Position numbers and translations under genes: made by a program. From Puniceicoccales bacterium (GTDB lineage: Bacteria; Verrucomicrobiota; Verrucomicrobiia; Opitutales; JAIRLM01), in contig JAITOA010000044.1 of assembly GCA_031290195.1 (NCBI GenBank), positions 256-64,255 on the forward strand: a stretch of DNA of 64,000 nucleotides. Reading direction: 5' to 3'. Below are positions 33,300 through 59,130 of the stretch, piece by piece. Position 1 is the first letter of the stretch. The number at the start of each line of letters is the position of its first letter. The notes below the pieces were generated by a model. That model saw nothing but the letters and a program-made list of their open reading frames with translations. It was not told the origin of the DNA and searched no databases.

Positions 33300-33824
33300 A
33301 TGGACGTGGGCTCAAATCCTATCTTGGCACGGCAATTTATGCTCACCGCGGAGAGGGCGTCTTCCCATGCAAAAGAAGAAGCAATTTCAGTGATGACAAC
33401 CGTACCGACTATTGGCTTTCAGTATCTTGCTAATCTAGGGCGTGAATGCGTAGAAAATGGTTTCAAATGCGGAATATGCATGGTGCTATTGAAATCTCCG
33501 AAAATTTTCGTTGCGCTATTAGCGATAACAGTGGGAGGAGCCCTTTCATTGCTTGGAAGTTTGCCCTCATGGATAATATTTTTATCATGCAGTAGAAATT
33601 CAAATCATGCTTCGCTAGAATTCATGAAACAAGCCATGACTGAAATAGACAATGCCATAGATGAAAGTAGAAATAAAAACAATGATCTAGCATGTGTGCT
33701 GGAAGATTGCAAAGATTTTATAGTGACAGCTGAGGATGCTAATTTAGTTTTTAGCAATCTAACCAACATAGAAGAATTGGAAAATTTTATAACCAGTAAG
33801 AACCCTAGCTTTTCCCAATTATAA
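33300..33824 (+). CDS. Hypothetical membrane protein with a bilobed hydrophobic segment (Inc-like)
   Basis: 174 aa. Residues about 57-97 (CGICMVLLKSPKIFVALLAITVGGALSLLGSLPSWIIFLSC) form two hydrophobic lobes. The C-terminal half is hydrophilic and looks AT-rich. Confidence 0.6.
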   Translation: MDVGSNPILARQFMLTAERASSHAKEEAISVMTTVPTIGFQYLANLGRECVENGFKCGICMVLLKSPKIFVALLAITVGGALSLLGSLPSWIIFLSCSRNSNHASLEFMKQAMTEIDNAIDESRNKNNDLACVLEDCKDFIVTAEDANLVFSNLTNIEELENFITSKNPSFSQL

Positions 33825-34000
33825 CAAGGCTCTAACTATTCCACTAATTAAAATCAATCGGGAAACTAATTCCCAGGAAATTGTGATCCCCGGCACCGCT
33901 TCCAATGCCTCCGATGCAGTTCTTGTGGTGCGCGGAATGAATTTCATTGACGGCGGCGGAAAATTTTCCCATTCATTGCTCCGTAATCGAACGAAAGGCC

Positions 34001-35770
34001 ATGGAAGTGCTTGGGAAATCGCCGCCGCTGGGAATCACAGAAGTTATTGATGAGCAACATTTAAAGGGAACGCTTCCGTCTGGAAATCGAAGTGTTCTGT
34101 GGCAGGTTGGAACCGACCGCGGCGTGTCCTTTGGAAAAATGTTTTGTCTAACAATCTTGGATTCGTTACTATTCCCCTTCATTGCTTTTTGGAAATTTTG
34201 CTTTGGAGGGGAGAATCCAACCTACTCCTGGACGCTTCTGCGGGCCGCCATTGGCAAAATTTTGGACAAAGAGCAAAAAAATTTACCGCCGAATTCGAAC
34301 GTGAGTCCCGAAGGCGAAAAATTGCCCGAGGTTAGTGCGCCCGAGAATATTGGCATTCCATCCGACGTCGAAAATGAGGGAACTGTGTCCGGTGACACCG
34401 AAAGGGAAGTGCCGTCTCCGGCCGAGCCCGCCGCCCCAAGCTTAAAGCCAAAAACAACGGAGGAAAACCTCCCTCCGGGTTTCTTTCCAAAGGAACGACT
34501 AGACGAGCTGGCACTGGATTCGTTTACGCAGGATGCGAGGACGGGAGGGTTCCGTTCTGCCCTCGCGAGTCGAAATTTAGAAATATTAGATTGTGGCAAT
34601 GGAAATGGAACAGCAAGCTGTCTCTTTGCCAGTACTCTTTTTGCGCTAGGAATAAGTAAAGAAATAGAGCCGTCCAGGGATGAGTGCTTGCAGCTTCGGA
34701 AGGCACTCGCCTGCTCCATGTTTGCATACGCCAAAAAAGTAGTAATTGGTGCGCAAAATTTGCCACAAAAAGAAAGAGGATTATTGGAACAGGCCTGCGA
34801 TTATCTTCTTATTTCCATGGGCATCAATCCGACGGATTATCCGGAAGCTAATTATCCGGCGACTGAAGATTTTCCTAAGGATATGGAGTCGGCGAAGGGA
34901 GTTTTGCCGTCTAAACTTCTCCGAGAATTTGAAAAAAGCATAGAAGTCAAAATTGCGGCGAAAGATTCTGATTTTGTCGAAACATTCGATTTTTTAAAAG
35001 AGAAAGAATACAATTATGCTGTGCATTTTTTATTTCAAGTAATTGAGGTTGATAGTAACGGAGAAGAGAAAGTGAGATATTACATTAAACTTCAAAAGGA
35101 AGACCGAGTTAATGACATTCGTGAAAAATACTTAGGGGAACCGTATTCCTACAGTAACGAACAAGTTGAAGAACTTGTAAGAGAGGCTAAACAAGCATTT
35201 TCCGATGTGCAAAGCGGGAATATTCCAGTAAGCGAGAGAAATAAATATAATATACTAAGTGACTTTTACTGGAATAGAATGGAAAATAGAAAAGAAGAAA
35301 TTGAGGTTGCCAATACACTTTTTGAAGGCGCCAAAGAGATGCAAGATGATAACCTAAATAAAACCTTTGCCTATGTAAACGCCCTTGCCTCTCTTTTTGG
35401 AATTGATCCGCCGCTTGAGGACACAAGGTTTTACGAACTTTCCACCGGTATGACTGGGAAATATGGAGAAAAAGCATTCGAATTTAAGCTTGAATCCAAA
35501 AAAAATTCCGCTCTCTCCATAATGCTTCACTATGCCTCCTTTACTACGGGAGCGCTTGGAGGGGCTGGCGACACCTATGACTGCTTCTTTTTGGCTCGTT
35601 ATTTGCAGAAGGATATCCTTCTATTTGATTACGTGACCAATGGTCTCCATCGCTTTCCCGCCAGCGACGATCCTAGCCATAGATTTGGGGAATCAGGATT
35701 CGTTACATTGAACTATGTTAGTGGGCACTACCAGGCTGTTATTGATTCTAGGAAAAAGGCCACGCCCTAG
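34001..35770 (+). CDS. OTU-like cysteine protease (candidate deubiquitinase) with a long helical insertion and an N-terminal hydrophobic segment
   Basis: Cys box LDCGNGNGTASCLFASTLFAL (Cys codon 34619-34621) and His box LNYVSGHYQAVI (His codon 35726-35728) resemble OTU signatures but lie about 370 aa apart. Hydrophobic segment: MFCLTILDSLLFPFIAFWKFCF. I prefer ATG 34001, which follows GAAAGG. The track TTG at 33947 is a TTGAC -35-like box. Confidence 0.5.
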   Translation: MEVLGKSPPLGITEVIDEQHLKGTLPSGNRSVLWQVGTDRGVSFGKMFCLTILDSLLFPFIAFWKFCFGGENPTYSWTLLRAAIGKILDKEQKNLPPNSNVSPEGEKLPEVSAPENIGIPSDVENEGTVSGDTEREVPSPAEPAAPSLKPKTTEENLPPGFFPKERLDELALDSFTQDARTGGFRSALASRNLEILDCGNGNGTASCLFASTLFALGISKEIEPSRDECLQLRKALACSMFAYAKKVVIGAQNLPQKERGLLEQACDYLLISMGINPTDYPEANYPATEDFPKDMESAKGVLPSKLLREFEKSIEVKIAAKDSDFVETFDFLKEKEYNYAVHFLFQVIEVDSNGEEKVRYYIKLQKEDRVNDIREKYLGEPYSYSNEQVEELVREAKQAFSDVQSGNIPVSERNKYNILSDFYWNRMENRKEEIEVANTLFEGAKEMQDDNLNKTFAYVNALASLFGIDPPLEDTRFYELSTGMTGKYGEKAFEFKLESKKNSALSIMLHYASFTTGALGGAGDTYDCFFLARYLQKDILLFDYVTNGLHRFPASDDPSHRFGESGFVTLNYVSGHYQAVIDSRKKATP

Positions 35771-35878
35771 GCGATGGGGGCTACGGCGTGGTCCTTGCCA
35801 CTTATGCCCGAAACCCACATCCACGCTGAAATTTCGCTAAATGCTTGCCGTGGGGATCATTCGTTGGAAAATCGACCC

Positions 35879-57950: not shown

Positions 57951-58309
57951 ACAAACGAGCCATTCGACACTTTGCTACCAAAAAAACCCGCTCGGAGATG
58001 AATGCTGATTGCATAAATTTGCAACGCAAATCGCAAAGCCCAGATGGTAAAAATCGGGGAAAATTTCGCAACCATTGTTTGTTTTTGGAAGAGGTCTGAT
58101 GTTTTCCAACAGACGGCGGAAGCGGAGGGGAAAGCCACAAATAAGTCACCCAAGGTGGCGGCGAATTTCCGACTTGTACACCGCTGGCTGTCCAAGGCCC
58201 CCCTGGGGTCAATTTGCGGACATGCGATTCAATCACATTTTATAAAATATCGTATTTCCCTGGGAAAGAAGTGCTTAAAAAAAGCAGATGTGAAATTTTT
58301 TAAAAAAAA

Positions 58310-58338
58310 TTGTGAAATACTTAGATTGGGGGTAACAT
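58310..58338 (+). promoter_or_regulatory. Promoter candidate TTGTGA-17-TAACAT, with the -10 ending 9 nt before ATG 58348
   Basis: Read directly: aaaaaaaTTGTGAaatacttagattgggggTAACATctccctgctATG. An A/T-rich tract lies upstream. Confidence 0.4.
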
Positions 58339-58347
58339 CTCCCTGCT

Positions 58348-59130
58348 ATGGAAGTAAAGTCCCTAGATACAGCTCCGATGTTCTTAAATTCGCAGAACAC
58401 TGGCACGGAAGAAGGCAGTAGTTCCACGCCATCGGATTCTTCCCTGGCACGCCGCTTCTTTGCCCATAGAGTTGCCACGTTTGGGAAACACGTAGCAGAG
58501 GACGGTGCCTACAACACACTAAAGAGTTCCTTTTCTAGGGAAACGGTAAAAAAAATTGAAGATACGTGCACAGCACTCCATGGCAATAACACATTTGTAG
58601 CCTGCAAAGCCATGGCGTTAGTTCTGTCCGCAGTACCAGAAGTTTCAATCCTTGGAAGTATCTTCAGCATGGTAACCGGCCTCGTGGAAACTGTTCACAA
58701 AAATTCCCCCCACGGCAAATTGGCGGAAACGCACAGTAGGATGGACGATCAAAGTGAAGCAATGAAGACCGTGCGGACCGCAGTCGATGGACTTGTGACG
58801 GCAAATAGCATGGTTTCCAAATCCAAGTTCGTGGTTGGCCAACTCCTATCGATCGTAAGCAGTAACTGGGAAAAATTTCCCGAGCCCGTTCGCAACCAAA
58901 TGATGGCCATTTTATCGGATCTTGGCCCGACAGTAAGTACTCTGACCGATGTTAGCAAAGCATTTGGCGTAATTGCAAATGTGTTGGATTGCGTCATCCC
59001 GAAGGATGGATGTACCCTCGAATGTCAGCAATTGGAGTTTGACGATCCAAATGTTCCCGCGGAGGATTCTGGGGATGAACTCCCTGGCTTTGAGGATTTT
59101 AAAAATTTAGAAAGCCTTCCAAGATGGTAG
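58348..59130 (+). CDS. Hypothetical protein with a bilobed hydrophobic segment (Inc-like) and an acidic C-terminus
   Basis: 260 aa. Hydrophobic segment: FVACKAMALVLSAVPEVSILGSIFSMVTGLV. Divergently arranged with the kinase-like gene. I recognise no family. Confidence 0.6.
   Translation: MEVKSLDTAPMFLNSQNTGTEEGSSSTPSDSSLARRFFAHRVATFGKHVAEDGAYNTLKSSFSRETVKKIEDTCTALHGNNTFVACKAMALVLSAVPEVSILGSIFSMVTGLVETVHKNSPHGKLAETHSRMDDQSEAMKTVRTAVDGLVTANSMVSKSKFVVGQLLSIVSSNWEKFPEPVRNQMMAILSDLGPTVSTLTDVSKAFGVIANVLDCVIPKDGCTLECQQLEFDDPNVPAEDSGDELPGFEDFKNLESLPRW

Follow-up and report, generated by a model that had tools for sequence, protein, structure and literature searches.

The DNA analysed here, a stretch of 64,000 nucleotides from contig JAITOA010000044.1 of a Puniceicoccales assembly (GCA_031290195.1) and called the window below, is a gene-dense bacterial chromosome segment of about 52-55 genes. 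It is a chromosomal stretch in which small islands of lineage-specific genes with a low GC content at third codon positions (GC3) lie amid housekeeping genes. As far as their sequences tell, several of the island proteins combine a single hydrophobic anchor (25-55 aa) with a globular domain, in most cases by way of a long, disordered linker rich in Pro, Glu and Ser. Six proteins are considered: a patatin-like phospholipase (9099-11102, + strand), an orphan first called OTU-like (33947-35770, +), a PI3/PI4-kinase-like protein (56279-57919, -), and three small orphans at 33300-33824, 44269-44994 and 58348-59130 (all +). What is new here is the presence of hydrophobic-anchor effector-like proteins, together with an anchored PI3/PI4-kinase-like family, in termite-gut Opitutia. 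An earlier note on this DNA had described one architecture in unrelated families, a bilobed hydrophobic hairpin joined to a hydrophilic domain. The layout was found again in the patatin, the kinase-like and the OTU-like proteins, which share a short polar N-terminus, a hydrophobic region, a linker of 55-90 aa that contains Glu, Ser or Gln besides its 12-17% Pro, and finally a globular domain, but a clean hairpin was present in the patatin only.

The patatin-like and kinase-like proteins

The patatin-like protein has 667 aa, with the bilobed domain at aa 24-75 (nt 9168-9323), a P/E/S-rich linker at aa 80-135 and the catalytic domain after it. Its hairpin is a textbook one (aa 24-48, N49 and aa 50-75, that is 25 + N + 26 residues, 46 uncharged), and the flanks are positively charged on both sides. 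The name given in the earlier note was upheld by a match to PF01734 of 30.7 bits against a cut-off of 27.7 and by the motifs GGGAKG (oxyanion), GNSIG (the GxSxG serine) and YDG (the DG aspartate). On this profile and these three motifs, the protein is predicted to be a patatin-like phospholipase. The closest Protein Data Bank (PDB) entry by sequence was Legionella VipD, a weak match (E = 0.004). The only homologue found lies in a sister metagenome-assembled genome (MAG), at L002:8606-10360(-), where it adjoins acpS and secA. It aligned with E = 7e-48 and 28% identity and keeps the catalytic motifs, and it has its own N-terminal hydrophobic region of ~65 aa, not alignable to that of the window protein. 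The architecture of the patatin is conserved and the anchor sequence is not. A k-mer search of 5.8 billion proteins returned the protein itself only, and a metagenome scan with the patatin alignment returned no further homologue. The patatin gene has a GC content of 0.46. It is adjoined by a gene for a Na+/H+ exchanger with TrkA-C domains (11072-13480, -), whose GC of 0.476 and GC3 of 0.50 are atypically low; this exchanger gene is low in GC like the orphans, which suggests that the island may extend beyond the patatin gene.

The PI3/PI4-kinase-like protein has 546 aa counted from Met93, in an open reading frame (ORF) that extends to 58195. Its N-terminus holds a two-lobed, moderately hydrophobic stretch at aa 35-76 (nt 57692-57817), followed by a P/Q-rich, disordered linker (aa ~78-194) and the kinase domain (aa ~200-530). 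The catalytic residues are K294, D390-R-H-x-x-N395 and D407, and K294, D390, N395 and D407 are invariant in the family alignment. Taken alone, the window protein matched PF00454 (PI3_PI4_kinase) with E = 0.2, and a single-sequence PDB search gave noise only. In a full HMMER search, 38 homologues turned up among 1.84 billion cluster representatives. PF00454 was matched by 8 of the 21 aligned members, the query included, and the closest homologue (P0015) scored 28.1 bits against a cut-off of 27.1. The AlphaFold2 model made with the 39-sequence alignment reached a predicted local distance difference test score (pLDDT) of >90 for residues ~200-530, showed helices at 43-57 and 59-74, and fell to <50 in the linker. 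Every top Foldseek match to this model was a kinase (Cdc7, Rio2, VPS34, YopO). The family profile (HMM) matches and the fold agree with the earlier label of a kinase-like protein, and we describe it, from alignment and model, as PI3/PI4-kinase-like with a predicted protein-kinase-like fold, with either a lipid or a protein as a possible substrate.

Twenty of the 38 kinase homologues were looked up, and 14 had an organism name: 13 were from termite-gut Puniceicoccales MAGs, spanning nine locus-tag prefixes, and one was from an alphaproteobacterium. An N-terminal hydrophobic domain (aa ~25-90) is present in P0015, P0020, P0021, P0025, P0036 and P0053, and weakly in P0050; some of these anchors are very hydrophobic (Kyte-Doolittle (KD) values up to 3.08) and clearly bilobed, for example in P0021. 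Tandem duplications occur in the family, and some members are fused to HD or SidE_PDE-like domains. In four relatives, the kinase-family genes lie in small Pfam-less islands amid housekeeping genes, as in the window. Judged from these sequences, the family is lineage-restricted and expanded. Two members have further domains, P0023 and P0025 (L086:2991-7103 and L083:10001-12370), both on contigs of termite-gut Puniceicoccales MAGs. P0023 combines an HD domain with a SidE_PDE match of 24.7 bits, just under the cut-off of 25, and P0025 carries, besides the kinase-like domain, an N-terminal hydrophobic domain of ~57 aa and a domain of the HD type. It would be notable to find a phosphodiesterase of the SidE type beyond Legionella-like bacteria.

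Hydrophobic regions against chance and controls

Hairpin-anchored effectors are a signature of the way in which Chlamydiae build their intracellular niche. The chlamydial Inc proteins, which make up 4-10% of chlamydial proteomes, have been defined by two transmembrane (TM) helices of 15-32 aa joined by a loop of 3-22 aa, or of <30 aa, that is P/G/N/S/T-rich and uncharged (PMC3048545). In this study, hydrophobic regions were called from KD hydropathy together with a charge map, and TM strength was taken as a Hessa-type sum over 19-mers, with the scale of Hessa et al. 2005. Chance was assessed with 2000 residue shuffles per protein, scored on reaching the observed region length, and relatives were surveyed for ORFs with a single hydrophobic region of 35-70 aa in 80 secA-centred loci.

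None of the 2000 shuffles reached the observed length for the patatin, six did so for 33300-33824 and five for 44269-44994 (p ~0.003 or below). The number rose to 114 for 58348-59130, to 210 for the OTU-like protein and to 1123 for the kinase-like protein, whose two moderate lobes are weak when taken alone. On this sequence measure, the predicted anchors are real for three proteins, namely the patatin, 33300-33824 and 44269-44994. Proteins with a single region of 35-70 aa numbered 3 of 55 ORFs in the window versus 8 of 1224 in the relatives (Fisher p = 0.0097). Among the eight control proteins, three were of known membrane types as judged by eye (NfeD-like, LemA-like and pilin-like), and one was the patatin homologue. 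Counted in total, the candidates amount to 3-6 per ~52-55 window genes, or ~5-10%.

The three small orphans had each been credited with a bilobed hairpin. Their ORFs, their peptides and the presence of one hydrophobic region only in each protein were all reproduced; the two lobes were reproduced in part only. In the protein of 33300-33824 (174 aa), the N-terminus is polar, the C-terminal domain is acidic (isoelectric point 4.8), and the hydrophobic stretch lies between them at aa 55-98 (nt 33462-33593). KSPK separates a 10-aa lobe of this stretch from an uncharged run of 29 aa (70-98), and the KD region is at aa 57-97; by the Hessa-type sum the stretch contains one strong TM segment at 69-87, and the extra lobes have just 8-10 aa. 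The 44269-44994 ORF has 241 aa (213 aa in the NCBI and JGI calls). It is P/S/T-rich at the N-terminus, continues with a small globular part and ends in 36 hydrophobic aa (aa 194-229, nt 44848-44955; KD region aa 187-233) and a 12-aa tail. It has the strongest TM segment of the set (206-224, sum -3.7). Its C-terminus would form either a short hairpin (17 + MG + 17), in which case one Lys falls inside helix 1, or a strong TM helix serving as a tail anchor. Both of these proteins can be described as one strong TM segment with an extension. The hairpin proposed for 58348-59130 does not go beyond chance: this protein of 260 aa, encoded divergently from the kinase-like gene and S/T-rich at its N-terminus, has a weak two-lobed stretch of 31 aa at aa 84-114 (nt 58597-58689) that contains K88, P97 and E98, with the K and the E in or close to the turn. 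Its KD region spans 25 aa only with a maximum of 1.85, and its best 19-mer sum of 4.3 lies within the range of soluble housekeeping proteins, which makes it a doubtful membrane anchor. Like many Incs, the small proteins consist of the anchor and a short soluble domain only.

The statement that the small proteins lack recognisable homologues was confirmed. The searches of 5.8 billion proteins with 33300-33824 and 44269-44994 returned the queries only, the 90% cluster of 58348-59130 contains this protein alone, and none of the three matched Pfam, even at E = 10, or PADLOC. An identical 15-mer, CAACGCAAATCGCAA, occurs at 33131-33145 and 58022-58036, within a 27-nt stretch of 81% similarity; the first copy precedes 33300-33824 by ~170 nt and the second precedes 58348-59130 by ~325 nt. 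Two or more matches arose in one of 100 shuffles, and the 15-mer may be a shared regulatory site or a chance match.

The OTU-like ORF (33947-35770, 607 aa) has one moderately hydrophobic segment of 23 aa that includes an Asp (aa 64-86; nt 34136-34204) and is a weak candidate, then a P/E-rich linker (aa 107-190) and a globular part. Its start (33947-34384) is disputed among annotators: the NCBI call of 461 aa lacks the segment, and the JGI (589 aa) and Logan (607 aa) calls include it. The first 146 codons are open in this frame only and have a coding-like codon pattern. Anchor screens of these MAGs depend on the choice of start codon, because the NCBI call removes this segment. The OTU label itself found no support. 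The protein matched nothing in Pfam or among PDB sequences at E up to 10, a metagenome scan found no relatives, and the single-sequence AlphaFold2 model had a pLDDT of 35 and was unusable. An identity as an OTU deubiquitinase is unsupported by the Pfam and PDB sequence searches and goes back to the by-eye motifs 'ASCLFAS' (~aa 224) and 'GHYQAV' (~aa 591) only.

These results bear on the possibility that the proteins have no common architecture, and that grouping by eye brought together one hairpin protein, one with a tail anchor, one that is single-pass and three soluble ones whose hydrophobic helices are buried. Some of the ORFs may then be mis-started or unexpressed, and the common trait would be that of young or foreign AT-rich genes. 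In line with this, three of the six regions do not go beyond the shuffles or the soluble controls, gene starts differ by annotator to the point that a segment is lost, the proteins show no sequence similarity to each other, and three neighbouring low-GC paralogues (20173-23676) have no hydrophobic region at all. However, the same order of anchor, P/E/S-rich linker and domain is found in three unrelated large proteins, and the anchor recurs in diverged homologues of both the patatin and the kinase-like protein. The hairpin-only proteins are enriched relative to the control loci, and the genes have a coding-type codon-position bias with the annotated frame alone open. We consider a grouping of this accidental kind quite improbable.

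Source organism, gene setting and secretion genes

The best SecA matches were MAGs labelled Puniceicoccales or Opitutales, with the termite-gut Nm470_bin121 at the top (69% identity). In a neighbour-joining tree of SecA, a rough single-gene placement, the window and Nm470_bin121 form a pair beside a large cluster of termite-gut Puniceicoccales MAGs. Because of these matches and this tree, we assign the source organism, on sequence grounds, to the termite-gut Opitutia ('Puniceicoccales') of Verrucomicrobiota and not to Chlamydiae, a case that the earlier note had foreseen. The NCBI annotation carries the locus tag LBS68_, with MDR3317042-MDR3317086 as the proteins of this contig, and an identical sequence is also present in the assembly of run SRR14710898. 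No 16S gene lies in the window. In the literature, the mostly termite-gut sequences of the verrucomicrobial 'Nucleococcus cluster' belong to nuclear and cytoplasmic endosymbionts of protists (PMC8204192).

The housekeeping content of the window comprises secA, hisS, murG, a fused murC-murB, ddl, ftsQ, infC, trpS, thrS, aspS, lpxD, gpsA, thyA, nrdA, lptF/G, sucCD, ruvX and ABC transporters. Core genes have a GC of 0.53-0.58 and a GC3 of 0.60, and the orphans have a GC of 0.39-0.50 and a GC3 of 0.33-0.49, except for the kinase-like gene (0.54). With values of 0.39, 0.46 and 0.48 for 33300-33824, 44269-44994 and 58348-59130 (GC3 0.35-0.49), the small orphans are indeed richer in AT than the core genes, as had been noticed, and the codon-position bias of the orphan genes is still of coding type. 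Their position between housekeeping genes without mobile-element scars was likewise borne out: the window has no tRNA, no Rfam match and no long flanking repeats, and no transposase or integrase family was detected among the ~50 ORFs scanned. A mobile-element origin of the islands was rejected on the lack of tRNA, flanking repeats and Rfam matches. No significant similarity was found among the orphans; the best value, E = 0.016 for 33300-33824 against 44269-44994 in a 19-sequence database, is at chance level.

Genes that are island-like, low in GC and lineage-specific could also be anti-phage or toxin modules, in which a patatin lipase and small TM proteins serve as abortive-infection effectors in the manner of cyclic-oligonucleotide-based signalling systems (CBASS). 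Defence systems are known to include patatins and small TM effectors. Yet none of ten orphans matched a PADLOC model, no cyclase, sensor or other partner is adjacent and the neighbours are housekeeping genes, and the nearest solved relative of the patatin by sequence is Legionella VipD. A role in defence is highly improbable, and it was set aside on the lack of any PADLOC match among the orphans.

Genes of type III (T3SS), type IV (T4SS) and type VI (T6SS) secretion systems were found neither in the 64 kb window nor in four homologue contexts of 17-22 kb, and no small acidic chaperone-like neighbour of the T3SS type was identified, so the T3SS genes and chaperones to which the earlier note had pointed were not encountered in these sequences. 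T3SS genes are known from some cultivated Verrucomicrobia (PMC7251102). The secretion-related genes in these sequences are a GspE/PilB-type ATPase and an autotransporter barrel only. The ATPase (36533-37687, +, 384 aa) is without the N-terminal domain and aligns to residues 111-440 of the 486 of GspE; plsY and a GldG-like gene flank it, and further type II secretion or type IV pilus genes are lacking nearby. The autotransporter beta-barrel (30500-31654, -, in the region 30500-32079) is immediately preceded by a small ORF (31645-32079) with a GC of 0.45, an N-terminal signal-anchor-like segment and no Pfam homologues.

The anchored proteins may instead be envelope proteins of the bacterium itself, in which hairpins inserted by Sec/YidC, signal anchors and a tail anchor hold lineage-specific enzymes, for example for lipid remodelling or signalling, with no delivery to a host. 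Such an arrangement agrees with one strong TM segment each in 33300-33824 and 44269-44994 and with one strong and one marginal segment (+1.6) in the patatin, values that overlap those of the housekeeping membrane proteins of the window. It also agrees with the lack of specialised secretion genes in the window and the four homologue contexts, with the intact envelope biogenesis genes, and with a control set that includes a two-TM hairpin (NfeD-like) and single N-terminal anchors (LemA-like and pilin-like). On the other hand, both enzyme chemistries are directed at eukaryotes. Inserted into the inner membrane of the bacterium itself, the patatin would have its lipase domain on the cytoplasmic side, because both flanks of its hairpin are positive, and this would be an awkward place for a phospholipase. 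The kinase family is limited to a host-associated radiation, expanded and in part fused to SidE_PDE-like and HD domains, and the atypical GC3 and orphan status of the genes would suit fast-evolving host-interaction genes. Furthermore, three of the anchors are only marginally hydrophobic, a trait described for secreted transmembrane effectors that have to escape targeting to the inner membrane. A purely bacterial envelope role is somewhat unlikely in our estimation.

Some further features of the window touch none of these proteins. Three tandem paralogous orphans (20173-21228, 21371-22465 and 22627-23676, in the region 20111-23676) are 27-28% identical, have a GC of 0.42, a GC3 of 0.33-0.39 and no hydrophobic region, and are each preceded by a conserved 77-nt element containing TTGACT. 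A HECT E3 ligase identity for these paralogues was rejected, as the one weak match (E = 0.005) did not reach the cut-off and the three-way alignment shows no conserved Cys. A 783-aa ORF at 15562-17913 (-) joins an N-terminal MurC-like ligase to a C-terminal MurB, with ddl as a gene of its own after it; Verrucomicrobium spinosum is known to have an enzyme in which MurB and MurC are fused (PMC4803751). At 29005-30476 (-), the overlapping ORFs 29556-30476 (with an N-terminal TM segment and a weak match to PpiD-type peptidylprolyl isomerase) and 29005-29664 (no match) may belong to a single gene that a frameshift or an assembly error has divided.

Likeness to Inc proteins and to Legionella-type effectors

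The candidates resemble Incs in that one hydrophobic domain is set in a hydrophilic, lineage-specific protein without detectable homologues. With its 25 + N + 26 layout, its lack of charges and its Asn turn, the hairpin of the patatin conforms to the definition in PMC3048545, the candidates at ~5-10% of the window genes lie within the chlamydial 4-10%, and the source organism belongs to the same Planctomycetes-Verrucomicrobia-Chlamydiae (PVC) superphylum. They differ from Incs in that the organism is outside Chlamydiae, that neither their sequences nor Pfam relate them to an Inc family, and that no T3SS was seen in the window or in the four homologue contexts. Moreover, two of the three small proteins have a strong TM segment with an extension and not two clear helices, the third is doubtful, and here long disordered linkers join large lipase and kinase-like domains to the anchor. 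By phylum and by sequence the candidates fall outside the Inc proteins, but they may work like them.

The domain repertoire is closer in spirit to membrane-directed effectors of the Legionella type. A VipD-like patatin, a PI3/PI4-kinase-like protein and SidE_PDE-like and HD domains are reminiscent of those Dot/Icm effectors of Legionella and Coxiella that target host membranes, among them VipD, phosphoinositide kinases and phosphatases, and the SidE family with its PDE domain, and hydrophobic hairpins are host-membrane anchors in some of those effectors. In contrast to Legionella and Coxiella, the organism belongs to another phylum, and no Dot/Icm or other T4SS genes were seen in the sequences examined. 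The likeness is at the level of family and fold only (VipD at E = 0.004; SidE_PDE at 24.7 bits with a cut-off of 25), and VipD itself has no TM anchor, unlike the window patatin. With the patatins ExoU, VipD and Pat, the window protein shares a Pfam match above the cut-off and the G-G-G-x-K-G, G-x-S-x-G and D-G motifs, but it adds an N-terminal bilobed hairpin and an acidic Pro-rich linker, which is unusual. The source organism also resembles the 'Candidatus Nucleococcus' cluster, likewise termite-gut Opitutia, whose members live in the nucleus or cytoplasm of gut flagellates and ciliates (PMC8204192). According to the same paper, the Nucleococcus genome is unpublished. An intracellular or vacuolar lifestyle of the source organism is inferred by analogy from the literature on this cluster (PMC8204192) and not from the MAG itself.

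The reading that we tentatively prefer, without calling it probable, is that these are membrane-anchored host-interaction proteins that act like Incs or like the transmembrane effectors of Legionella, with secretion, insertion into host membranes and an intracellular lifestyle as its conjectural parts. The island proteins would be exported by some secretion system, and the hairpin or anchor would insert into a membrane of the host protist that surrounds or touches the bacterium. Both termini, and with them the enzymatic domain on its flexible linker, would face the host cytosol, where the exposed domains could modify host lipids or proteins. PI3/PI4-kinase-like and ExoU/VipD-type patatin enzymes have their known substrates and cofactors in eukaryotes, and by this analogy the two chemistries would make most sense on eukaryotic membranes.

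Several points weigh against such host-directed anchored proteins. A textbook bilobed hairpin is present in one of the six anchors only, that of the patatin, and many members of the kinase family have no hydrophobic domain. The best 19-mers of 58348-59130, the OTU-like and the kinase-like proteins are no better than those of the soluble housekeeping proteins of the window, and in hydrophobicity their regions do not exceed the buried helices of soluble proteins. Two-TM and tail-anchored proteins are ordinary components of bacterial inner membranes, and as the small proteins have no homologues, their conservation and even their expression would be assumptions. The enrichment over relatives comes from secA neighbourhoods and from small numbers. 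The window shows intact peptidoglycan, lipopolysaccharide and tricarboxylic acid cycle genes and lacks markers of an obligately intracellular bacterium, for example a nucleotide transporter, and the failure to find T3SS, T4SS or T6SS genes counts on the same side.

A more far-reaching proposal, rather unlikely as it stands, is that the termite-gut Opitutia radiation, whose phylum is the sister of Chlamydiae, decorates the membranes of host protists by an Inc-like strategy, either evolved within the radiation or handed down by a PVC ancestor. The repertoire would then include fast-evolving hairpin effectors, an expanded kinase-like family with some SidE- or HD-fused members, and an anchored phospholipase of the ExoU/VipD type. 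Other PVC phyla were regarded as primarily free-living by Dharamshi et al. (PMC9816063), and we found in the full-text literature no description of bilobed or Inc-like proteins or of effector families in Verrucomicrobia symbionts. If this proposal is true, a second, undescribed decoration of the inclusion-membrane type would exist outside Chlamydiae. If lipid enzymes are anchored in host membranes here, the question whether the strategy is ancestral or convergent could be put to a second PVC lineage. The island proteins would also be candidates for the molecular tools used by the verrucomicrobial symbionts of gut flagellates, of which little is known, and the kinase-like proteins would be a new family of PI3/PI4-kinase-like effectors with modular anchors.

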